A stretch of 52,734 nucleotides of DNA from an uncultured archaeon (GTDB lineage: Archaea; Asgardarchaeota; Heimdallarchaeia; Heimdallarchaeales; Heimdallarchaeaceae). The stretch covers positions 1 through 52,734 of the forward strand of contig CAZHRF010000018.1 of the NCBI GenBank assembly GCA_964534625.1. Reading direction: 5' to 3'. Of the stretch, positions 32-15,159 are shown one piece after another. Position 1 is the stretch's first letter; every line of letters begins with the position of its first letter. The translations under genes and the position numbers were made by a program. Under the pieces are notes generated by a model. It searched no databases. It saw only the letters and a program-made list of their open reading frames with translations, and was not told the origin of the DNA.

Positions 32-100
32 TTTTGTAACTTTTTTATTTTCTTGAGATCAAAAAGCTTACTTTGGGATAGGTGACTTGTCACCAGCGAG
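32..100 (+). repeat. ~70-bp repeat, copy 1 (inverted relative to 6294-6364)
   Basis: TAACTTTTTTATTTTCTTGAGATCAAAAAGCTTACTTTGGGATAGGTGACTTGTCACCAGCGAG matches the reverse complement of 6294-6364 with about 4 mismatches and one indel; contains hairpin GGTGAC-TT-GTCACC. Confidence 0.9.
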
Positions 101-206
101 GTTTTTTTAGTTTTTTTCCTTTTTTCTTTTAATATTTTGTATTATCCTTCGTCGTAAGAAATATATAGGCGCAGAAATAATTCATAAATAATACAGTTTA
201 TTTAGG

Positions 207-1268
207 GTGATTACAGTTTCTCCTCGTTCCTCAAATGTTTATTCAATTAATGTTCCTGCAAGCTTTAAAGATGCAGTCATTGACAAATCGCAAGTTTTTG
301 GTGGCACTAGTGAGATGATTGCTCTTTGCCTTGATGATTTAGCTTTACGTTTAAATAAACTCTCTAAACGTTTACAAGTTGTTGAAGAATTAAATGACTA
401 CATTAAGCTTGAAGTTTTGCTTATGAAAAAATATAGCGATGATGATTCTTCTGCTTCTGATAAAAAACTTACTTTTCGGCTTAAAGATCAAGTTGTCAAA
501 GAAAGTCTTAAGATTATCAAACGTAAAACAGGTTGGAACACATCTAAATCCATTCGCATCTCTCTTATTTGGTATCTTTATGCAAATTTTGATGATTTTG
601 TTGCTACAGAAGATTTTATTCCTTTATTGAAATGTAATTTTTGTGGGTATATAACGCATGATCAACGAGCTCTTGCCGTTCATATCAAAGATCTCCACGA
701 AATTGTATGCCCTTATTGTGGCAAGCATTACTCTAATACAGAAGATCACCTTTGTGAACAGATGATTGCTTTAAGGGGGTCAGATGGAAAACAATTTACT
801 AAAGATATAATCTCTCCTGCTCTCTCCAACACATCCTTATCCGATACAGAAAAACTACAAAAAATTGTCGAAGCGTTAGATATTGATAGTTTGCAATCGT
901 CTCCAGAGAGTATAGATACAAAAGATACTACTGGCTCTGATATGATAGATGATACTGACCAAAAAATTCTTAGTTCGTTAGGGTTAGATAGTTTTGAATT
1001 CCCCAAAGCACCTGAAGATGAAACAGCAGAAATAAGAGAACTCTTACCGGATAAAGAAATGTTTGATCAATCTGAAACACAACTAAAAGAACTATCTGAA
1101 CAGATCTCAGAGATAGGAGGAACACTCTTAGATTTACCTAAAAGTAATGAAAATATACCCACACCTGATAAAAGAAAGAAGAAAAAACACCAAGATGAGG
1201 AATTAGAGAAATTAGATGATGAAATTGCAGAAATATTAAAAAGTCTTAAAAAGGATGGCGTACTCTAA
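207..1268 (+). CDS. Zn-finger protein (C2H2 + C2HC) with possible ribbon-helix-helix N-terminal region and acidic C-terminal tail
   Basis: CNFCGYITHDQRALAVHIKDLH and CPYCGKHYSNTEDHLC; LTFRL...SKSIRISL resembles RHH; GTG start. Confidence 0.7.
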   Translation: MITVSPRSSNVYSINVPASFKDAVIDKSQVFGGTSEMIALCLDDLALRLNKLSKRLQVVEELNDYIKLEVLLMKKYSDDDSSASDKKLTFRLKDQVVKESLKIIKRKTGWNTSKSIRISLIWYLYANFDDFVATEDFIPLLKCNFCGYITHDQRALAVHIKDLHEIVCPYCGKHYSNTEDHLCEQMIALRGSDGKQFTKDIISPALSNTSLSDTEKLQKIVEALDIDSLQSSPESIDTKDTTGSDMIDDTDQKILSSLGLDSFEFPKAPEDETAEIRELLPDKEMFDQSETQLKELSEQISEIGGTLLDLPKSNENIPTPDKRKKKKHQDEELEKLDDEIAEILKSLKKDGVL

Positions 1269-1324
1269 GTTTTGTTATAATAAAAAGATACATATATTTA
1301 ACAGAGAAATAGGAAAAGAGAAGA

Positions 1325-2182
1325 ATGTCTAAATTACAATTAAAAGTACTGTTAGTCGAGGATGATACTGATATTGCTTTCTTAGTCAAGGCTAACATAG
1401 AAAAACACTTTGATGATGTAATGATTAGTATAACTGATACAATAGAAGAAACTCTTGACATTCTTCATAAAAATAATTACGATTTCGATGTTATTCTTTT
1501 AGATTATTTACTTGGCAATGTTACCGGACTAGAAATTTTAGAAAAAGTGCGTGAAGTAACCCAGATACCTGTCGTTATTATTACGGGTCAAGGATCTGAA
1601 GAGGTAGCTGTCAAAGCAATGAAACTAGGTGCTAGTGACTATATTGTTAAACGAGGACACTTTTTCAATCAGATCCCCGAAGCCATCAAAAAAGTTGTCA
1701 AACTCAAACCTAAATATGATACTGCCAAAATATTTTTAGCTTTTTACAGATTTGGTAAATCGGGTACAGAACCTATTTATCTTAAAAACTTACCTGTTGA
1801 ATATGCAAATAATAAAGAAACGGTTACTTTATCTTTAGGCGTTCTTTTATTCACTCTCTTTGGTATGGGAGAAATTGATAAGATTGATGATGGTTCCATT
1901 ATCTCTGGTCCCGTTAGAATTCCTAAAATGAAAGATTATAGCGCAACAAGTTTTCTGTATGTTTTAAAAGACAAGGGACAAGAAGATCCCCGTTTTTCAG
2001 GAAAAGATTATTGTATAGTCGCCCTTGCTTATCCGGCTGATTATGAAAGTTTAGTCTATGAAATAAGCAAAATACAAAATATCTTATCCGCCTTTTTTGA
2101 AGGAATTGAAGATATCTCCGAAGTAAAAGAAAAGGCAGAACAAGTTGAAAAGAAAATTTATAATATAATTTCAAGATTTTAA
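1325..2182 (+). CDS. Response regulator receiver domain fused to a longin/uDENN-like domain
   Basis: LLVEDD, ILLDY (phospho-acceptor Asp), IITG, YIVK; C-terminal FLAFYRFGKSGTEPIY...DPRF resembles Asgard longin/DENN-like domains. Confidence 0.8.
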   Translation: MSKLQLKVLLVEDDTDIAFLVKANIEKHFDDVMISITDTIEETLDILHKNNYDFDVILLDYLLGNVTGLEILEKVREVTQIPVVIITGQGSEEVAVKAMKLGASDYIVKRGHFFNQIPEAIKKVVKLKPKYDTAKIFLAFYRFGKSGTEPIYLKNLPVEYANNKETVTLSLGVLLFTLFGMGEIDKIDDGSIISGPVRIPKMKDYSATSFLYVLKDKGQEDPRFSGKDYCIVALAYPADYESLVYEISKIQNILSAFFEGIEDISEVKEKAEQVEKKIYNIISRF

Positions 2183-2189
2183 TACGATA

Positions 2190-3353
2190 CTATTTCTTTT
2201 TCCAACACGCTTCATAAATCTCTTCTATCTTTGGTATCTCTTTTTCCCAATTGTAGTGCTCAAAAAAAGCTGTTTGTGCTTCTTTTTTTAATTCCTCAAG
2301 ATTTTCTCTGTGATATATCCTTTCAATAGTTTTTGCTAGCTCCATAGAGGAAGTTGGATCAATCAATAAACCGAGATTTTCATGCCCTTCAGTTCCAATT
2401 TTTAAACCTTCAAAATCGGATCCAATAAAAAGAACTCCTGCACTAAAATATTCATAGAGTCTATTTGGTATCCTCAAATAATTGTTTTTTCCTGGTTGAA
2501 ATAAGATTAGACCCACATCAGCTGTTCTCATTACAGAAAGTGCCTTATGATAATCCATCCAACCAGTGAGTCTAAAATAATTTGATAAATCTAATTCGTT
2601 TATTTTCTGCTTCATTGGGAGGTAAGAAGAACCAGAACCTATGATAAGAAAATGTATTTCGTTTGAAGAATATTTTTCTCTTAAAATATTAGCTGCTTCA
2701 ACAACCTTGTTGTAACCTAAATTATGATACATCACACCGAAATACACTATTCTAAACTGCTCTTGTTTTCTAAATTTTTCTGGTATTTCTTGGTCATGGG
2801 CTTGTTTAACATCAACTAAAGAAGGATAATTGGCAATATAATCACATTTAACACCATATTTTTTTTCTAAATTTTTTGAATAGGAAGGACCCGGGGTTAT
2901 AACATGATCAACTTTATGGATGTAAAACTTTTCTAGTAATGTATAAACCCAAAGAGCGATTACTCCATAAGTTTCGGACATTTGTTCGGGAAAATTTTCA
3001 TGACTATCATAAATAAAGAATTTTCCTTTCTTCTTTAATTTAGATACTAAAGGTAAGACATTCAGATCATGTAGATGAATAAAATCGTATTTAACTGAGA
3101 CTTTGTCAACATATTTTTTCACTTTTCTCCAGAATTCCCAATACTTGAATATTGCCCGTTTTTTACTCGGTAATCGTATAATCGTGTATCCATCTCTATG
3201 TTCCCTTTTTTCCAAATCTCCCGTTCGATCTATACCAATAACTGTTAGTTCATGTCCTTGAGAAGCTAGATATCTAGCTTCTTTTTCCACTCTAACATCA
3301 GGATTGACCGTACTTAAGACAACCATTAAAATTTTCCAGTTGCTACCAGACAT
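2190..3353 (-). CDS. Glycosyltransferase family 4 (GT-B)
   Basis: DVRVEKEA, IHLHD, IYDSHE, PNRLYEYFSAG, C-terminal YNWE. Confidence 0.9.
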   Translation of the reverse strand: MSGSNWKILMVVLSTVNPDVRVEKEARYLASQGHELTVIGIDRTGDLEKREHRDGYTIIRLPSKKRAIFKYWEFWRKVKKYVDKVSVKYDFIHLHDLNVLPLVSKLKKKGKFFIYDSHENFPEQMSETYGVIALWVYTLLEKFYIHKVDHVITPGPSYSKNLEKKYGVKCDYIANYPSLVDVKQAHDQEIPEKFRKQEQFRIVYFGVMYHNLGYNKVVEAANILREKYSSNEIHFLIIGSGSSYLPMKQKINELDLSNYFRLTGWMDYHKALSVMRTADVGLILFQPGKNNYLRIPNRLYEYFSAGVLFIGSDFEGLKIGTEGHENLGLLIDPTSSMELAKTIERIYHRENLEELKKEAQTAFFEHYNWEKEIPKIEEIYEACWKKK

Positions 3354-3440
3354 ATATGAACATAGATATTTCTTTTAATATGTTTTCCTCAATGAATGTA
3401 AGCATATATTCTTTTGACATTTGAGATGCTACTGATTAGA

Positions 3441-4382
3441 CTAGTCTGATATCAAAATATCATCTAAAACAGATTCTAGATCTGGTCTTTCTGGAGGTTC
3501 ATCTGATTTTTTTAGATCACCTTCAGTTATTGCACCAGAGAGGTCTAGACCGCCCCCTCTCCTTCGTATTCGAGATGGAGAGGCTACTACCATATTACCA
3601 CTCAGCTGTTCTATTTTAGTATTAATAGTTGTTACAAGATCTACAAGTTTTGAAATTTGTTCGTTATTAAATGTACCTACGCCATCAAGATCTTTTTCAG
3701 CCTGCTTTCTAATTGCTTCTTTATCTTCCGTTGCTTTTTCTAGTTTGTCAAAACTTGAAACTTTTTGTTCTGGTTTTAACTCCGTTTGCGTTTTTACAAT
3801 TTTTCCCATATGATTTTCGGTAATGGCTTCTGCAACTTGTTCTGCCACCATATCTGATGGAAATAGCTCTGTTAATTCCGTCAACACTTGTCTCTGATTT
3901 GTTTCATTAAGATTACGTATCTTATCCCTTAATTCATCTCTCTCATTTATAAGATCTGCAAACTCACTTTCTAATGCTGAATATTTTTGTTGCAATAATT
4001 TATTACCACTATTCAATAATTTAATGAGTTTAAGCATCTTAGGAAAACTTCGACTCAGCTCAGCTGCATTCTTTTGCATTTCATGATATCTAGCAGCTGA
4101 TACAATCTTTATACCCTTTCCCTCTTTATCTCGCAGATCTTGTTCTAAGAACTCCACACGCCTTTTAAGTTCTCTATTCTGTTTCATTAGTTTATCTACA
4201 AGTAACTTAACTTTGCGGAGAGCTTCTAATAGGACCATATTACGCTGTGTTAATTCTTTAACATAAGCAGAACTATAGGTATCATGATGTAAAATCTCAT
4301 CTATTTCTTCAAATTCATTCTCATAATACTCTTTAGTTCTTGAGAATAATTTTTTTTCTGGTCCTATATTTGGATGATTCAT
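3441..4382 (-). CDS. Coiled-coil protein of unknown function
   Basis: Long heptad-rich segments; C-terminal RRRGGG and PPERPDLESVLDDILISD. Confidence 0.75.
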   Translation of the reverse strand: MNHPNIGPEKKLFSRTKEYYENEFEEIDEILHHDTYSSAYVKELTQRNMVLLEALRKVKLLVDKLMKQNRELKRRVEFLEQDLRDKEGKGIKIVSAARYHEMQKNAAELSRSFPKMLKLIKLLNSGNKLLQQKYSALESEFADLINERDELRDKIRNLNETNQRQVLTELTELFPSDMVAEQVAEAITENHMGKIVKTQTELKPEQKVSSFDKLEKATEDKEAIRKQAEKDLDGVGTFNNEQISKLVDLVTTINTKIEQLSGNMVVASPSRIRRRGGGLDLSGAITEGDLKKSDEPPERPDLESVLDDILISD

Positions 4383-4530
4383 TTATTCCACCATGGGAAT
4401 TCTAAGCTAATAATAAGTCTTAAGATTATTACTATTACTATTGGGGTATATTAAATCTTAGCTGTCATTTAGATATATACATATTTGCTTTTATGTTACT
4501 TTTCAATTTTAAGTTCACATTCTCCATTGC

Positions 4531-4565
4531 CAGAAAGCCGACTCCTTTAGGGTAGAGTAGTTCAT
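4531..4565 (+). mobile_element. IS200/IS605 (IS1341/TnpB-type) right-end-like remnant
   Basis: GAAAGCCGACTCCTTTAGGGTAGAGTAGTTCAT resembles the GAAGCCnnnnCTTTAGnnnGGGTAGTTCAY hairpin end of tnpB elements; no transposase or tnpB in window. Confidence 0.55.
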
Positions 4566-4596
4566 ATTATGCATGAATAATTTAAAGATATGAAGG

Positions 4597-4667
4597 AAAG
4601 GTTGGTAATGAATTAAAAGAAGAAAAAACTAAATTTTTTAACAATAGAAACAAACTCTTTGCTTCAC
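4597..4667 (+). repeat. Exact 71-bp intergenic copy of coding sequence 5200-5270
   Basis: AAAGGTTGGTAATGAATTAAAAGAAGAAAAAACTAAATTTTTTAACAATAGAAACAAACTCTTTGCTTCAC occurs at both positions. Confidence 0.95.
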
Positions 4668-4795
4668 CTGAAGATACTTTATACTGCATTATTATTATAG
4701 TCTACTGCTTTTATCATAGTTATCTGTTATTGCGAAAAGATTTATAATCTATCCTATTAACTTCATGTATCCAATATTATTAAAGCGTGAAATAA

Positions 4796-6124
4796 ATGGT
4801 TGCAGTTCAATATGTAGATATAGGCATTGCGTATGGAGATTTCATAGTTTGTCAACATTTAGATTTAGACATTGAAGATGGAGAGATAACTACTCTTTTA
4901 GGTCCTAGTGGTTGTGGTAAAACCACTTTATTACGTTCATTAGCTGGTTTTGTTGAACCTTTTCAAGGTAGAATACATATGGATAATAAAGATATTACTG
5001 AATTGCCTCCCCAGAAAAGAAATACTGCCATGATATTTCAAAACTATGCTTTATGGCCACATATGAATGTTTTTCGTAATATCGAATATGGGCTTAAATT
5101 ACGTAGCAAAGACAAATTAAAAGATACGAAACGCCCTTGGTATGCCCGTTTTTTCTGGCTTACTAAACCCGTTTTTTGGTTTCATAAACAAACTTTTGTA
5201 AAGGTTGGTAATGAATTAAAAGAAGAAAAAACTAAATTTTTTAACAATAGAAACAAACTCTTTGCTTCACTCTTATGGCCTTTCAAGTTAGTATTTCGAG
5301 GCATTAAGCTAATATTTGAGCAATCTACTCAAGTATATTACGATAAAAAAGCATCAGTTGATCCTCACTTCAAATTTCGTCGAGATAAAGTGTTTAAAGT
5401 TTTACAGTTAGTACATCTGGAGAATCAAGCTTATAAAAGCCCCCCTCAGTTATCAGGAGGTCAACAACAGCGTATTGCATTATGTAGGGCTATAGTCGTT
5501 GAACCGGACATATTGCTTTGTGATGAGCCTTTAAGTAACTTAGATGCTAAACTTAGATCTGAATTACGAACAGAAATTCGCTCTATTATTAAAAATATAG
5601 GTATAACAGCTGTTTATGTTACCCACGATCAAGAAGAAGCACTAGCAATTAGCGATAAAATAGCTATTATGCATGAGGGAAACATCGAACAATATGGTGA
5701 CCCCATAAAGGTATTTAATGATCCTCAAACCCTATTTGTAGCCCAATTCATCGGTGAGTCAACCACCATCAATGGAAAAGTTACAGCAGAAGAAACAATA
5801 ACTCTTGAGGGTGGAGAGGTTCTAAAGATAAAAACAAAGGAAAAGTTACCTAAAGCAACAGATTTGCAAATAGTTATTAGACCTGAAGATGTTAAATTAG
5901 TTCAAGAGAATGGCTATCATCCAATTGAATTCGAGATAAATACAATAGAATACCTTGGTGTTATGCTTAAATTAACGGGTAAACTTAAAGATGGTACTAT
6001 ACTTCTTGTTGATGTAGAAAAACAACCAGAAGCTTATACTTCACTGAAAGTTGGTAACAAACTAACTGGATATGTAAAACCAGAGGCTATTTTTGTTTTT
6101 AAAGATAATCAAAGGGTATATTAA
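4796..6124 (+). CDS. ABC transporter ATP-binding protein (MalK/PotA/FbpC type, TOBE C-terminus) with ~90-aa insertion
   Basis: Walker A GPSGCGKT, Q-loop FQNYALWPH, LSGGQ, Walker B LLCDEP, VTHD. Confidence 0.93.
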   Translation: MVAVQYVDIGIAYGDFIVCQHLDLDIEDGEITTLLGPSGCGKTTLLRSLAGFVEPFQGRIHMDNKDITELPPQKRNTAMIFQNYALWPHMNVFRNIEYGLKLRSKDKLKDTKRPWYARFFWLTKPVFWFHKQTFVKVGNELKEEKTKFFNNRNKLFASLLWPFKLVFRGIKLIFEQSTQVYYDKKASVDPHFKFRRDKVFKVLQLVHLENQAYKSPPQLSGGQQQRIALCRAIVVEPDILLCDEPLSNLDAKLRSELRTEIRSIIKNIGITAVYVTHDQEEALAISDKIAIMHEGNIEQYGDPIKVFNDPQTLFVAQFIGESTTINGKVTAEETITLEGGEVLKIKTKEKLPKATDLQIVIRPEDVKLVQENGYHPIEFEINTIEYLGVMLKLTGKLKDGTILLVDVEKQPEAYTSLKVGNKLTGYVKPEAIFVFKDNQRVY

Positions 6125-8564: not shown

Positions 8565-9239
8565 ATGTTTGAATATGAAAATATTAAAATCAAGTGGCTT
8601 GGGCACGACTCTTTTTTAATCAAAGCAAAAGGGAAGAATATATACATTGACCCTTATAAGATTGAAGATAGCGACCTACCCTCTGCTGATATAATTATAA
8701 CTACCCACGAGCATTTTGATCATTGTCATCCTGAATCTATTAATGCTTTATCTACAGACAAAACCACGTTAATTGGACCAAAAATTACTCAGGAAAAACT
8801 CAATGAAATAGAACAGAAAAAAGAAATTCTTGAATTAAACCCAGGTGGGAAAATAGCTGTTGAAGCCTTTGTATTTACAGCTATACCCGCCTATAATTGG
8901 CACAGATTTAGAGATCCCAAAACAAAAACGCCTTTCCACCCTAAAGAATCCGGACATATAGGACCAATTCTACACATCGATGATTTGAAAATCTATCATT
9001 CAGGAGATACTGATAAAATAGAAGATATGACAGGATTAAAACCAGATATTGCTTTGATCCCCATTAGTGGCACATATGTAATGGATGTAGACGAAGCTAT
9101 AGAAGCAGCACAATCAATTAATGCAAAAATAACAATACCAATGCATGTGGGAAGGGGAATAGGAGAGGTTTCATATACACAAGAATTTAAAGAAAAATTA
9201 CCTAACATGAGAGTCGAAGTATTAGATCTAGAAACGTAG
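8565..9239 (+). CDS. MBL-fold metallo-hydrolase (UlaG-like)
   Basis: WLGH, THEHFDH, YHSGDT, IPMH. Confidence 0.9.
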   Translation: MFEYENIKIKWLGHDSFLIKAKGKNIYIDPYKIEDSDLPSADIIITTHEHFDHCHPESINALSTDKTTLIGPKITQEKLNEIEQKKEILELNPGGKIAVEAFVFTAIPAYNWHRFRDPKTKTPFHPKESGHIGPILHIDDLKIYHSGDTDKIEDMTGLKPDIALIPISGTYVMDVDEAIEAAQSINAKITIPMHVGRGIGEVSYTQEFKEKLPNMRVEVLDLET

Positions 9240-9419: not shown

Positions 9420-10901
9420 ATGGATGACCAGAAATCTAGTTTAGATAAAAGTAAACTAAAAAAGGTAGAGACGAGTGAGAAATCAAAAAATACACCAGAT
9501 CCCTTGACCACAAAGAGTACAGTACTATATGGCTTTGGGTCCTTAGCAGATCAAATGTCGACACAATTTTTTCAGTTTCTTGTATTCACTTATTATTATG
9601 CAATAGTGGGTGTTGGGGTTGATTTATTAGCAATGGGGTTCGTTATTTTTGCTCTATGGGACTCGATTAATGATCCAATGGTCGGAACGCTGACAGATAA
9701 GACAAAACCAAAAATGGGACGAAGGAAATTTTGGACGATTGTCTCTTTAGTACCTTTTGCGTTGGTTAATGTGCTATTATTTACTCCACCGTTTTTCTTT
9801 GGAAATACAAACATTATGATTAATTATGTATATATGATTATAGTAATAATTGTTTACGATACAATGATAACATTTTTTGGAGTAAGCCAGCTCAGTTTAT
9901 TCTCTGAAATGTTTATAACAGAAGAAGAGCGTGGAAGAGCTAACATGTGGAAATGCGTATTAACCATTGTTGGAGTGATTATAGGGTTTGTAGTTCCCAC
10001 ACTAATTATTGATGAACTTGCTCCTAAACCAAATACACCGCCTGAGGTTATAGCTGCTCTTCCAAATCAATATTTCATAACAAGTATAATGGTAGCAGTA
10101 TTAATTATCATAGGAGGATTAATATTTTACAAATATGGAATTGTTGAAAATAGACATGATGAAAAGTATTTGGAAAGCCAAGATGATCCAGGATTATTCC
10201 AAATGCTAACAGACACATTAAAAAATAAGAAATTTGTGCTCTTTTGTATAGCAAACATGGTTAAATGGGTAGTATTCAAGATGTTGGTTACGATTACGCC
10301 TCTTTGGGCCATTCATAATTTGGGGCTTTCTGGTATTTGGGTCAGCGTATTTCTTCTAATTGCATTTATCTCATCTATGATTATGTTTCCTATCATGGAG
10401 CTGGTAGGTAGAAAAATCGGTTGGAGAAATGGATTAATTGTTATGCAACTTTTCTGGTGTATAGCATTAGTCCCTTATTGGTGGTTAGATTTTCGTCCAT
10501 ATCTTGCTATGGTCTTTGTTGTGTTTGTTGGTGCAGGTTTATCGGGAGCTATCTACTTTGTAGAACCTATTATAGCTAATGTTATCGATGAAAATGAACT
10601 ACGAACAGGAAGAGCAAAAGCGGGCTCATACTATGGTGTAAATGGACTGATTAACCGACTTAGTACTATTATGGTCTTTGTTTTAATAGCTATAGTTTTA
10701 TCGGGTTATGGCTGGGAACAATATATTGTAGGTGCTGAAATAGAAGAACTAGCACAATTGAGAGAAGGATTAAGGGTGCTATTTGTTCCAGTAAGTATTG
10801 CGGGAAACCTCATAGTAGCTATTTTATTACTATTTTTCCCACTTCACGGTGAAAGATTAGAAAAAGTCCAAGCTGAACTAGCTGAAGTTCGCTCTAGATA
10901 A
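9420..10901 (+). CDS. MFS transporter, GPH (MelB-like) family, paralog 1
   Basis: WDSINDP, GRRKFW, ANVIDENELRTG, about 12 hydrophobic segments. Confidence 0.92.
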   Translation: MDDQKSSLDKSKLKKVETSEKSKNTPDPLTTKSTVLYGFGSLADQMSTQFFQFLVFTYYYAIVGVGVDLLAMGFVIFALWDSINDPMVGTLTDKTKPKMGRRKFWTIVSLVPFALVNVLLFTPPFFFGNTNIMINYVYMIIVIIVYDTMITFFGVSQLSLFSEMFITEEERGRANMWKCVLTIVGVIIGFVVPTLIIDELAPKPNTPPEVIAALPNQYFITSIMVAVLIIIGGLIFYKYGIVENRHDEKYLESQDDPGLFQMLTDTLKNKKFVLFCIANMVKWVVFKMLVTITPLWAIHNLGLSGIWVSVFLLIAFISSMIMFPIMELVGRKIGWRNGLIVMQLFWCIALVPYWWLDFRPYLAMVFVVFVGAGLSGAIYFVEPIIANVIDENELRTGRAKAGSYYGVNGLINRLSTIMVFVLIAIVLSGYGWEQYIVGAEIEELAQLREGLRVLFVPVSIAGNLIVAILLLFFPLHGERLEKVQAELAEVRSR

Positions 10902-11095: not shown

Positions 11096-12568
11096 ATGTC
11101 TGAACAGATAATGATTAATGAGGAAAGTATTGAACCAAGCCATGAAAAAATTTCTAGAAAGAGCACAATCATGTATGGTTTTGGTTCATTCAGTGATCAG
11201 ATGTCATCTCAAATGTTCCAATTTCTTGTCTTTACTTATTATTACGCTATAGTACAGATCAGCGTAGAGTATTTAGTTATTGGTTTTATAATTTTTGCAT
11301 TATGGGATTCAATTAATGATCCTATTGTTGGAACTTTGACAGATAAGACAAATGTTGAAATGGGTAAGCGTAAATTTTGGACTATTGTCTCTTTGCTACC
11401 TTTTGCGTTGGTTAATGTGCTATTATTTACTCCCCCGTTTTTCTTTGGAAATACAAATGTTTGGCCTAATTTCATTTACATGATTCTAATCATCATTGCT
11501 TATGATACTGTATATACATTCTTTGGTGTTAGTCAGCTCAGTCTTTTTTCTGAGATGTTCATAACTGAGGAAGAGCGTGGAAGAGCAAATATGTGGAAAT
11601 GTGTTTTAACCATCTGTGGTGTAATTATAGGTTTTGTTGTACCAACTATTATTATTACAGAACTTGCTCCTGATAGCAATACAAGTCAAGCAGTTTTAGA
11701 ACTTATCCCCAAACAATATGTAATAAGTGGGCTTATTGTTGCTGTTGCTGTTATAATCTCAGGCTTAATTTTCTTTAAGTATGGTATCATCGAAGACCGT
11801 CACGATAAAGAATATCTTGAGAGTCAAGCTGATCCCGGATTAGTAGAAATGGTAAGTGATACGATCAGTAACGGTAAATTCGTTCTTTTTTGTACAGCCA
11901 ATATGATCAAATGGACCGTTTTTAAGATGTTGACTAGCATTATACCTTTATGGGCCATACACAATTTACAAATTACAGGTATTAGGGTTAGCCTCTTATT
12001 ATTAGCTGCATTCATTGCTTCTATGATCATGTTTCCTCTTATGGAAAAAATTGGTCAAAGATTTGGATGGCGTAATGCGTTCATTGGGACTCAGCTTTTC
12101 TGGTGTCTAGCTTTATTACCCTTCTGGTGGTATGATGGAAAACCCAATTTGGCAATGATTAATATGATCTTTGTAGGTGTGGGTTTATCGGGTGCTATCT
12201 TTTTTGTAGAACCCATTATTGCTAATCTTATCGATGAAGATGAACTCCGAACAGGAAAAGCAAAAGCTGGTTCATATTATGGTGTTAATGGGTTAATTAA
12301 CCGTTTAAGTACGATTCTGGTGTTTGTTATTATTGCTATCGTCTTAAGCGGCTACGGTTGGGAACAATATTTAATTGGAGCAGGAGAAGATCAACTTACA
12401 AACTTACGAGATGGATTAAGAGTCTTATTTGTTCCAGTAAGTATTGCAGGAAATCTTATAGTAGCACTATTACTATACATTTTTCCACTTCATGGGAAAA
12501 GATTAGAACAAGTCCAAGCTGAACTTGAAAAAGTTCGTTCAAGGAAAGTTTCAAAAACAAATCTATAA
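11096..12568 (+). CDS. MFS transporter, GPH family, paralog 2
   Basis: Same motifs; clear tandem paralog of 9420-10901. Confidence 0.92.
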   Translation: MSEQIMINEESIEPSHEKISRKSTIMYGFGSFSDQMSSQMFQFLVFTYYYAIVQISVEYLVIGFIIFALWDSINDPIVGTLTDKTNVEMGKRKFWTIVSLLPFALVNVLLFTPPFFFGNTNVWPNFIYMILIIIAYDTVYTFFGVSQLSLFSEMFITEEERGRANMWKCVLTICGVIIGFVVPTIIITELAPDSNTSQAVLELIPKQYVISGLIVAVAVIISGLIFFKYGIIEDRHDKEYLESQADPGLVEMVSDTISNGKFVLFCTANMIKWTVFKMLTSIIPLWAIHNLQITGIRVSLLLLAAFIASMIMFPLMEKIGQRFGWRNAFIGTQLFWCLALLPFWWYDGKPNLAMINMIFVGVGLSGAIFFVEPIIANLIDEDELRTGKAKAGSYYGVNGLINRLSTILVFVIIAIVLSGYGWEQYLIGAGEDQLTNLRDGLRVLFVPVSIAGNLIVALLLYIFPLHGKRLEQVQAELEKVRSRKVSKTNL

Positions 12569-12630: not shown

Positions 12631-12873
12631 CTATTCATACGCATCATCTGTTTCTTCGTATGTCAGTTTTAATCCACTTGGAGGAATATTATTTCCGCCA
12701 ATATATCCCACAAATGTTGCTCTTACATTAGCCTTCTCTTGACTCCGTTTCATATTAGGTTTTGTATGAACAAACTCAACTTGTTTGTTATATCTACTAT
12801 TAAATGTAGCAATTAACCATAATAGCAGTATGATTACAACCAACATCAAGATCATAGCTTGAAAGACTTGCAT
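12631..12873 (-). CDS. Small single-pass membrane protein
   Basis: N-terminal hydrophobic helix; fills intergenic space; divergent from the actin-like gene. Confidence 0.6.
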   Translation of the reverse strand: MQVFQAMILMLVVIILLLWLIATFNSRYNKQVEFVHTKPNMKRSQEKANVRATFVGYIGGNNIPPSGLKLTYEETDDAYE

Positions 12874-13006
12874 TTTTATCTGTGTACATATAGTCTTCCC
12901 TCCTTATAAACTAACCTTTACAACAATAATAAAACTTTGAAATTACATGTTTAAAGCAACTTTATCAAAGCTAGGTTTTTATATCCAAATATTTTCGAGT
13001 CAGATA

Positions 13007-14062
13007 ATGAGTTCTGATTCTATTTATGGCGTTGGCGTCGACTTGGGTACATCAACAATCAAAGTATCTTGCCAAGGTTTTTCATACAAAATACCGTCTA
13101 TTATAGGCGATAATAATCCTGGAGGGTGGGAAGGTTTAAATTCCAATAAAGAACTAATTGACAATTTATCTATTTATGATGATAATAATCGCTTAATATA
13201 TGTGGGGGAATTAGCTCGTCTTCAGTCCCCTATTAAAAAATCTCTTGCATCGGAAGGACGCATGAAATCAATACAAAATGTTATTCTTGCCCTCAAAGCT
13301 GCTTTAAGCATTATTCAGCAAAAGAAAGGATACGACACGTTTGTTATTGCCACCGGAGTTCCTGTAGCTAGCTCTAAAGATCAAAGTTTACGTATGATCC
13401 GCGGGATGAAAGGCAAACATTCTTTTAAAATTCGTAATGATTCTACAGGGGATGAAACTACTATTAACCTTCATTTTCCTAGGGCTATGGTTTTACCTGA
13501 ACCTTATGGAACTTACTGGCAAACCCTTAGTGTTTTAGGTGAAAGTAAAGCTGTCGATGCCATTATATGTGATATAGGTCACGGTAGTACCGACTTTTTA
13601 TGTATGTATAAAGGAGGAATTATGCGTGGAGCATCTGGATCTATAGAAGAAGCCACCGATAGTTTGACTAACGCACTTACTCGCGCTATTCAAGAAAAAA
13701 CAGGTAAGATCCTCCGACCCTTTGAGCTCATTAAAACTATAGAAGAAGGACGTAATCAAGTACTTGTCGGTGGAAAAGTTATGGATATTTCTTCTGCCAT
13801 TCATCAAGCTACTGTTGCAATTTCTGATGTTATTGTTGATGAAAGCCACCGTTTGCTTAACAATCTACCACCTGATGCTTGGATTGAGAAAGTCATTGTG
13901 TGTGGTGGAGGAGCACATATTTTTGGTGATTATTTAAAAAATGCTTTTGTTGCAGATGGTATAGTCAATTCAAAAGAAGAAATTTACGTGCCGCCAGATC
14001 CTGTAATGAGCAATGCCATTGGCTTTGAAACCATCGCCAATTCTCGTAAAGATAAAATTTAA
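13007..14062 (+). CDS. Actin-like ATPase, ParM/StbA/Ta0583 family
   Basis: Phosphate-1 VDLGTSTIK, ATGVP, LPEP, phosphate-2 CDIGHGSTD, adenosine CGGGA, SNAIG; likely start MSSDS at 13007 (ORF open from 12947). Confidence 0.9.
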   Translation: MSSDSIYGVGVDLGTSTIKVSCQGFSYKIPSIIGDNNPGGWEGLNSNKELIDNLSIYDDNNRLIYVGELARLQSPIKKSLASEGRMKSIQNVILALKAALSIIQQKKGYDTFVIATGVPVASSKDQSLRMIRGMKGKHSFKIRNDSTGDETTINLHFPRAMVLPEPYGTYWQTLSVLGESKAVDAIICDIGHGSTDFLCMYKGGIMRGASGSIEEATDSLTNALTRAIQEKTGKILRPFELIKTIEEGRNQVLVGGKVMDISSAIHQATVAISDVIVDESHRLLNNLPPDAWIEKVIVCGGGAHIFGDYLKNAFVADGIVNSKEEIYVPPDPVMSNAIGFETIANSRKDKI

Positions 14063-14165
14063 CGCTTACCAAATATATCAATCCACTATAGTTATTAAAT
14101 TTGAGTAGCATTAACTTATTCTACATATCCGAAGTTTAATTAATAACAAATCATTTAGTGCACAT

Positions 14166-14507
14166 ATGAAAATTAAAGAATTTATCATCAAAATTTACCG
14201 TAGATTATTTAAACAAAAATACCAAAGAGATGAAGATCAAACGTTTATTGATCCCTTTATGTATACAAACGATATTACTTTAGAATATTTAACTACTACT
14301 TGGCCTCATCTCAATGAAAAACAAAAAAATGACATTTTAAATTCAGATGAAAAAATGAAAAACCTCCCAGACGATCTTAAAGATAGACTTAAGACCATTA
14401 ATAGAAGTAATATCGATGAAATAACTAATGCTGAACGCGATTCCCTTAACAAAGCATACGAAATGATAATATCCGATTACTCCGGTTTTGTATCGGATCA
14501 TATGTAA
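14166..14507 (+). CDS. Small helical protein, paralog A
   Basis: TLEYLTTTWPHLNEKQKNDILNSD shared with next ORF; basic amphipathic N-terminus. Confidence 0.85.
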   Translation: MKIKEFIIKIYRRLFKQKYQRDEDQTFIDPFMYTNDITLEYLTTTWPHLNEKQKNDILNSDEKMKNLPDDLKDRLKTINRSNIDEITNAERDSLNKAYEMIISDYSGFVSDHM

Positions 14508-14721
14508 ACATACATTTCTATTTTTTTCTTAATTTCATAATTTTCATTATTAGCTTAATAATCCAAAGCATCCCGCGTATTGCCACATTACTTGCGATAT
14601 TCTAACTTACTTTTATGTTTTATCGTTTTTTTATATGTATTAGATTTTACATCTATTCATTATGTTAATAGGGTATTCTATCAATAGCAATATTAATTAA
14701 AGGTTAATTTCTAGTACATGT

Positions 14722-15072
14722 ATGTCAATCAAAGAATTCTTCCTAACCATCTATCAAAACCTTTTTGGCAAAAAAAAAGGCAAAACCCAAAAACAACCTG
14801 AGAAAGATATCAAAGATGTTTTACAAGTCAAAGATGCTGATCTTTATTCCCAAGATGCAACTTTAGATTATTTCCTTTCAACTTGGCCAGGACTATCGGA
14901 GAAGCAAAAAAATGATATTCTGGCTTCAGATAAGCACATGAAAGACTTTTCAGAAGACTTTAAGGAAAAACTACGGGCTATTAATAAGCGAGATGTAGAT
15001 AAAATTACTGAAGACGAGAGAGAGACAATAGAAGCAGCTTACCAAGCTGCTGTTCAAAAATATAATCTCTAA
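14722..15072 (+). CDS. Small helical protein, paralog B
   Basis: TLDYFLSTWPGLSEKQKNDILASD; same N-terminal pattern. Confidence 0.85.
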   Translation: MSIKEFFLTIYQNLFGKKKGKTQKQPEKDIKDVLQVKDADLYSQDATLDYFLSTWPGLSEKQKNDILASDKHMKDFSEDFKEKLRAINKRDVDKITEDERETIEAAYQAAVQKYNL

Positions 15073-15159
15073 ATTTTTTTTAGTTTCTTATTTATTTTTT
15101 TTAAAACAACTTAATTTTGGAAAATAGATACATAATTCCCAGTTAAATCAATCAACTAT

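Follow-up and report, generated by a model that had tools for sequence, protein, structure and literature searches.

The window analysed here is a 52,734-nucleotide stretch of an uncultured archaeon of the family Heimdallarchaeaceae (assembly GCA_964534625.1, contig CAZHRF010000018.1). At positions 12,631 to 15,072 it carries a gene for an actin-like protein (ALP), followed on the same strand by two small genes, here called small1 and small2. The initial annotation interpreted this locus as an undescribed actin-like filament system anchored to the membrane rather than to DNA. The four open reading frames (ORFs) on which this proposal was built are all present, with lengths of 80, 371, 113 and 116 amino acids (aa), and the locus is arranged as follows:

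12631-12873, minus strand: 80-aa orphan ORF with a single predicted transmembrane segment, divergent from the ALP gene
12947-14062, plus strand: ParM/Ta0583-type actin-like ATPase (ALP, 371 aa), assigned by Pfam, by AlphaFold2 (AF2) modelling with Foldseek, and by phylogeny
12976-12986, plus strand: TATA-like element TTTTTATATCC, read from the sequence, about 26 nucleotides (nt) before the ATG of ALP Met21
14166-14507, plus strand: small1 (113 aa), orphan family, with a predicted N-helix that is cationic and amphipathic, followed by a short linker and a helical C-domain
14521-14632, plus strand: small1-small2 spacer containing two T7 runs, at 14521-14527 and 14626-14632
14722-15072, plus strand: small2 (116 aa), paralog of small1, with a more hydrophobic N-helix followed by a K-rich stretch

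The codon usage of the three short ORFs (the 80-aa ORF, small1 and small2), at 0.29-0.35 bits per codon, lies in the range of real genes, the references being a median of 0.31 for true coding chunks and about 0 for shadow ORFs. As had been proposed, small1 and small2 are paralogs: they are 41% identical (BLASTP E 2e-28) and a W-P...EKQKNDIL block is common to both.

The description of the ALP as an intact actin-fold ATPase proved correct. The protein passes the Pfam gathering thresholds of both ALP_N (PF17989, 52.2 bits vs 26.3) and the Ta0583-type MreB-like_C domain (PF21522, 54 bits vs 27.8), and its three nucleotide-binding motifs, phosphate 1 (DLGTS at residue 32), phosphate 2 (DIGHGSTD at 209) and adenosine (CGGGA at 319), are intact. 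The top Foldseek matches of the AF2 model (pLDDT 86.4) are pCBH ParM, Alp7A, pSK41 ParM, CorM and Ta0583; against the solved ParM-type structures the E-values range from 4e-19 to 1e-15 and the TM-scores from 0.66 to 0.76, at 14-20% sequence identity. The same ParM-type set is retrieved from the PDB sequences by a profile of the ALP family (E 2e-12 to 5e-8). The actin-fold ATPase composed of ALP_N and a Ta0583-type C-terminal domain is thus shared with Ta0583 of Thermoplasma acidophilum and with ParM-type proteins, including pCBH ParM (6ixw/6izr), pSK41 ParM (3js6), Alp7A (5ec0) and Dh-cParM1 (8x1i). Furthermore, 90 of the 96 residues conserved in the family are retained; since six of these positions differ, compared with one in typical orthologs, the window copy seems derived but not decaying. 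To judge from its motifs and predicted fold, this protein most likely still binds ATP and polymerises.

In contrast to Ta0583 and the ParM-type proteins, the window ALP belongs to a separate, Asgard-wide chromosomal clade and comes without ParR, parC or a plasmid. Its match to the NCBIfam ParM equivalog (PRK13917), at 59.2 bits, does not reach the cut-off of 417. The other hallmarks of a type II ParMRC system, a ParR with an N-terminal ribbon-helix-helix (RHH) domain, a parC direct-repeat array and a plasmid or mobile context, were not found at the locus either. Indeed, repeat, ORF, Pfam and AF2 checks upheld the earlier remark that an iteron array, a replication gene and an RHH-type ParR are absent from the locus. 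The repeat analysis revealed no parC-like or iteron array, merely short two-copy repeats attributable to chance; there is no integrase, replication gene or flanking repeat near the locus and no tRNA within 13 kb of it, and its GC content is unremarkable. The small proteins gave no RHH or ParR match in Pfam, NCBIfam or the PDB sequences, and their model is all-helical, without an N-terminal strand.

The ALP is probably translated from Met21, at position 13007, which would give a protein of 351 aa, because orthologs begin 9-10 residues before GxDLGTS and because TTTTTATATCC lies about 26 nt upstream of 13007. This element could fit a leaderless transcript from 13007, bearing in mind that the genome is AT-rich. 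A start at the first ATG, which would add the segment 12947-13006, would provide a 20-residue hydrophobic and weakly amphipathic N-extension (moment 0.37, HeliQuest-type D about 1.0) that is missing from the orthologs. Such an extension recalls the N-terminal membrane helix of MreB, but the segment is more likely an untranslated leader or promoter DNA than a helix of this kind.

The ALP family extends over Heimdall, Thor, Hel and Loki/Promethearchaeota, with copies at 45-61% identity, many of which NCBI has named "ParM/StbA family protein". In 22 of the 24 genomes of the window's GTDB family there is one ortholog, at about 60% identity to the window ALP, and the window's own genome likewise carries this ortholog, on contig C2 (61% identical to the window ALP). 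Among the 5.8 billion proteins searched, none was found that exceeds 61% identity to the window ALP. A maximum-likelihood tree of 67 sequences places the window ALP as sister to all 31 orthologs of its GTDB family, within a clade of SH-aLRT support 99, on a terminal branch of 0.69 compared with a median of 0.042. Since this branch is so long, the copy could stem either from an old duplication or from a recent duplication followed by acceleration. The proposed chromosomal nature of this actin is borne out both by the tree, in which its closest relatives are chromosomal orthologs, and by its housekeeping flanks. The window ALP therewith appears to be an extra, rapidly diverging and catalytically intact-looking copy of the chromosomal ParM/Ta0583-type actin of Asgard archaea, a duplicate that would have been added to a family which almost all Heimdall, Loki, Thor and Hel genomes possess. 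In the sister-genus genome G002, the single ALP is divided over two contig ends, with residues 12-189 on one (L029, G002:C578) and residues 186-367 on the other (L030, G002:C183); this split is an assembly break rather than two genes, and the protein is an ordinary ortholog.

All members of the small-protein family have the same organization: an N-helix with an Arg/Lys face opposed to a Phe/Ile/Leu face, a variable linker rich in charged, Ser and Gly residues, and a C-domain of about 65 residues in which the W-P, K, I-N and E positions are invariant or nearly so. The terminal helix pattern, E.EK..I..AF, is conserved across the family. In the AF2 model of small2, the first helix (residues 3-19) is predicted with a pLDDT of about 50-60, residues 16-45 are disordered and a four-helix domain spans residues 48-113 with a pLDDT of 75-82. 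Basic amphipathic N-helices had been claimed for both window proteins. The cationic helix, of a type that serves in membrane targeting, is indeed conserved family-wide, and the Eisenberg moment is high for small1 (0.75) but low for small2 (0.35); the six members other than small2 range from 0.67 to 1.08, compared with a 99th percentile of 0.63 for the window ORFs (n=38). The HeliQuest-type D, for which the usual threshold is about 1.34, is 1.8-3.4 in all seven members and is largely driven by charge. Taken with the modelled C-domain, these features suggest that the small proteins are most likely peripheral membrane proteins presenting a small binding domain, though the N-helix is possibly an Arg-rich helix that binds nucleic acid instead.

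Searches with the small proteins in Pfam, NCBIfam, PHROGs, PADLOC, the PDB sequences and the ESM Atlas gave nothing above noise, and the best Foldseek match in the PDB had an E-value of 2.9. An acyl carrier protein assignment was rejected: the best VIA-align Z-score among 48,161 chains, 4.6, is at the noise level for small helical bundles, and there is no conserved Ser at the position of cofactor attachment in acyl carrier proteins. DUF3106 was likewise discarded, as its sub-gathering matches were confined to the two window paralogs and missing from the other family members.

The family is small. A profile built from four of its sequences retrieved five proteins from the library of 5.8 billion, and an exhaustive HMMER search of 1.84 billion representatives, with no restriction on length, yielded five clear members and a fragment, besides a 594-aa match (P0007) that consists of a carrier-protein repeat and was taken as spurious. 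From searches of 47 genomes of the order and one metagenome scan (alignment A3), seven loci were read: the two in the window, one elsewhere in the same genome (contig C23), one in the sister genus (G002), two in G046 and one on a metagenome contig, a count that leaves out a second contig with the exact small1 protein and the contig of P0005. Three of the 47 genomes of the order possess the family, and metagenome and viral-contig scans with small2 gave no relatives. The dN/dS ratio among three members is 0.16-0.20, which corresponds to purifying selection and indicates that these are real proteins. The two G046 genes lie on separate contigs (L052, G046:C24; L053, G046:C82) with a pS of about 0.6, and together they reproduce the context of the metagenome contig (L093). 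Since G046 is about 8% contaminated, these two copies may represent two strains rather than paralogs.

The window locus is flanked on one side by major facilitator superfamily (MFS) transporters and on the other by genes for a CCA-adding enzyme, LigT, a kinase and RNase Z. The right-hand block, RNase Z / 147-aa protein / kinase / LigT / CCA-adding enzyme, is syntenic in all five relatives examined, and synteny stops precisely at the 3' end of the CCA gene. In one relative, the counterpart of a metallo-beta-lactamase (MBL)-fold gene, found at 8565-9239 in the window, lies about 3.7 kb past the synteny break. The transporters on the other side are:

9420-10901: first of two tandem MFS_2 transporter paralogs
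11096-12568: second of the two

The WH2-like transporter mentioned in the initial annotation is a separate feature; WH2 motifs bind actin of the eukaryotic type and not ParM-type proteins, so that we see no connection with the ALP locus. Since synteny ends at the CCA gene, the lineage-specific stretch comprises the two MFS_2 genes, the 80-aa ORF, the ALP paralog, small1 and small2. The 80-aa ORF looks coding, with a codon score of 0.29; it has no homolog among 30 genomes of the same family, and its Pfam matches, Pilin_N and BatA, are merely sub-threshold.

Transcription signals divide the locus unevenly. The ALP and small1 genes are separated by a gap of 103 bp that contains no T-run of at least five, so that read-through from ALP to small1 is possible. 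The gap of 214 bp between small1 and small2 holds the two T7 runs listed above, which resemble archaeal oligo-T terminators, and T8 runs follow small2 at 15074 and 15095. Because small2 is preceded and followed by such runs, at least this gene is likely to have its own transcript. TATA-like strings are uninformative in the spacer, whose GC content is 24-26%.

Comparison with relatives does not support a single functional module. Five of the seven small-family loci have no adjacent actin-like gene; they adjoin instead genes for DegV, Tyr/Asn-rich secreted proteins, 2-oxoacid:ferredoxin oxidoreductase, an MBL-rhodanese protein, a PNPOx-like protein and alkaline phosphatase. Conversely, a small downstream gene encoding an amphipathic N-terminus is absent from all of the approximately 50 ALP-family loci read. 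The synteny check across Asgard genomes, by which the proposal was to be judged, thus found the pairing of ALP with a small gene in one genome only, in a variable region, and with small2 set off by its T7 runs. These results weaken the idea of a membrane-anchored module. We lean, with modest confidence, towards the reading that a lineage-specific ALP duplicate and the small genes lie side by side but are not coupled in any dedicated way. Small1 and small2, probably peripheral membrane proteins, would then be tandem duplicates from a Heimdall-restricted orphan family whose genes usually stand alone. They would most likely hold some partner at the membrane, and this partner need not be the ALP. 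The adjacency would best be explained by new duplicates piling up, together with the MFS pair, where the conserved gene order ends; such an accumulation in a variable stretch offers a non-functional explanation for the proximity of ALP and small genes.

Several observations weigh against this interpretation. The ALP and small1 genes are co-oriented and, given the lack of oligo-T in the gap between them, could be co-transcribed. It is also striking that duplicates of two different families lie side by side. Moreover, the layout of the small proteins, an amphipathic helix, a linker and a binding domain, mirrors those of CorR and SepF. Finally, the absence of linkage in relatives is not a clean test of the pair, because these relatives do not have this ALP paralog.

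The most serious rival takes these observations at face value. In the chromosomal CorMR system of Anabaena sp. PCC 7120, the N-terminal amphipathic helix of CorR brings a chromosomal ParM to the membrane, and the system controls cell shape (bioRxiv 10.1101/2025.06.27.661541); the structure of the CorM filament is available (PDB 9rmi; Springstein et al., bioRxiv 10.1101/2025.06.27.661541). Similarly, the duplicated ALP of the window could polymerise and small1 and/or small2 could tether its filaments, a scenario that we regard as unlikely, though worth retaining. We give no better chance to its finer version, in which the N-helix would bind lipid and the C-domain would bind the ALP, so that an adaptor unrelated to ParR would have evolved independently. 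The two systems do have features in common. In each, a chromosomal ParM-type gene is followed on the same strand by the gene of a small protein whose amphipathic N-terminal helix precedes a disordered linker, neither is found in a DNA-segregation context, and CorM is among the top profile and fold matches of the ALP. For the window proteins, the amphipathic N-helix of the adaptor is a prediction (moments 0.35-1.08; D 1.8-3.4 in seven of seven members). In addition, both partners are lineage-specific duplicates, as the recruitment of one copy of each would predict, and no terminator-like T-run separates the ALP from small1.

The window locus nevertheless differs from CorMR. The adaptor of a CorMR-type system would be homologous to ParR and contain an (RHH)2 domain, whereas the small proteins are all-helical and have no RHH and no similarity to ParR or CorR. 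The pair of ATPase and adaptor would also be expected to be conserved across related genomes, whereas that of the window is present in a single genome, unreplicated, and the small genes elsewhere are unlinked to ALPs. The many loci of each family that lack the other, the weak moment of small2 and the T7 runs that set this gene apart also speak against a joint function, and the C-domain matches no known fold from which actin binding might be suspected. It appears rather improbable that a spare Asgard ParM-type actin and spare orphan membrane-binding proteins have been joined as new membrane-tethered filaments, convergent with CorMR and with a non-ParR adaptor. The claim that a membrane-anchored actin-like system would be undescribed stands in part. 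A membrane-tethered chromosomal ParM has already been shown with CorMR of Anabaena (bioRxiv 10.1101/2025.06.27.661541), and chromosomal ParMs with and without ParR are documented in Firmicutes (PMC12270681). For the Asgard family itself, our literature search found no paper describing either its ParM-like/Ta0583-like actins or the small proteins.

The second likeness concerns SepF. This membrane anchor of FtsZ, which occurs in bacteria and archaea, begins with an amphipathic helix that targets the membrane and that a flexible linker connects to a small polymer-binding C-domain. The small proteins resemble it by analogy, in layout only. They have no sequence or fold similarity to SepF, and their C-domain is modelled as a four-helix bundle without a match in the PDB.

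According to another explanation, the small proteins could be soluble filament regulators whose N-terminal or last helix docks in a hydrophobic groove of the ALP and which also act in trans on the housekeeping ALP; such action in trans would account for most of the small-gene copies being unlinked. Tail helices of ParR and arcadin-2 are known to dock into actin-like filament proteins, and the structure of R1 ParM with the C-terminal peptide of ParR (4a62) is among the Foldseek matches. The conservation of the terminal-helix pattern and the presence of the ALP family in all genomes that have the small family are in line with such a role. However, the ALP is Asgard-wide and the small family occurs in three of the 47 genomes, so that the latter cannot be a general partner, and the last helix is modelled as packed in the four-helix bundle and not as a free tail. 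We therefore consider a soluble regulator to be very unlikely. Least credible of all, with hardly any chance of being right, is that the locus is what remains of a partition cassette, a ParM with accessory genes, that was integrated from a plasmid or virus: the ALP does match the phage "partition protein" phrog_691 (E 1e-32), the region is variable and the small family is patchy and multi-copy, but chromosomal orthologs of its own family are closer to the ALP than plasmid or phage ParMs are, the small proteins matched neither PHROGs nor viral contigs, no integrase, tRNA, flanking repeat or parC array was found, and the GC content is ordinary.

The adjacency of ALP and small genes, not being conserved, should not be read as an operon unless experiments support it. 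The locus draws attention to a strongly conserved and uncharacterised chromosomal ParM/Ta0583-type actin that Asgard archaea possess besides Lokiactin, and of which a divergent second copy is found here. It also reveals a small Heimdall-only family with a SepF/CorR-like layout and no known fold relative. If the pair does work together, it would show how gene duplicates can be combined into a cytomotive module in the archaea most closely related to eukaryotes, and ParM-type filaments would have been turned to use at the membrane a second time, independently. No earlier membrane-anchored cytoskeleton of the ParM type would then be known from archaea, and this one would be observed at the moment of its origin.

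The housekeeping members of the ALP family have neighbourhoods of their own. In the window's GTDB family, the ALP orthologs have a GTPase gene and a divergent 187-190-aa orphan on one side and, on the other, convergent genes for a CDP-alcohol phosphatidyltransferase and a phosphatidylserine decarboxylase. The convergent lipid-gene pair follows the ortholog in almost every genome of the family (L005; L007-L028), and the contig C2 copy of the window's own genome (L005, G000:C2:111895-115923) retains it. In most genera of the family, the ortholog is preceded by the gene for the small GTPase, which is Ras/Roc-like, and by the orphan, which has no Pfam match. In this conserved neighbourhood, the ParM-like actin of Asgard archaea is linked to genes for lipid synthesis and for GTPases. 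A different arrangement is observed in a second Heimdall clade, where the ALP, 48-50% identical, ends a co-oriented cluster of genes for a MoxR AAA+ protein with a poly-Pro N-terminus, a DUF58/VWA protein and a membrane protein of about 450 aa:

About 60-5050 of each of the loci L078, L079, L081, L083, L085 and L087: MoxR, DUF58/VWA, membrane protein and ALP cluster

This cluster may be an operon coupling the actin-like protein to a MoxR-VWA system.

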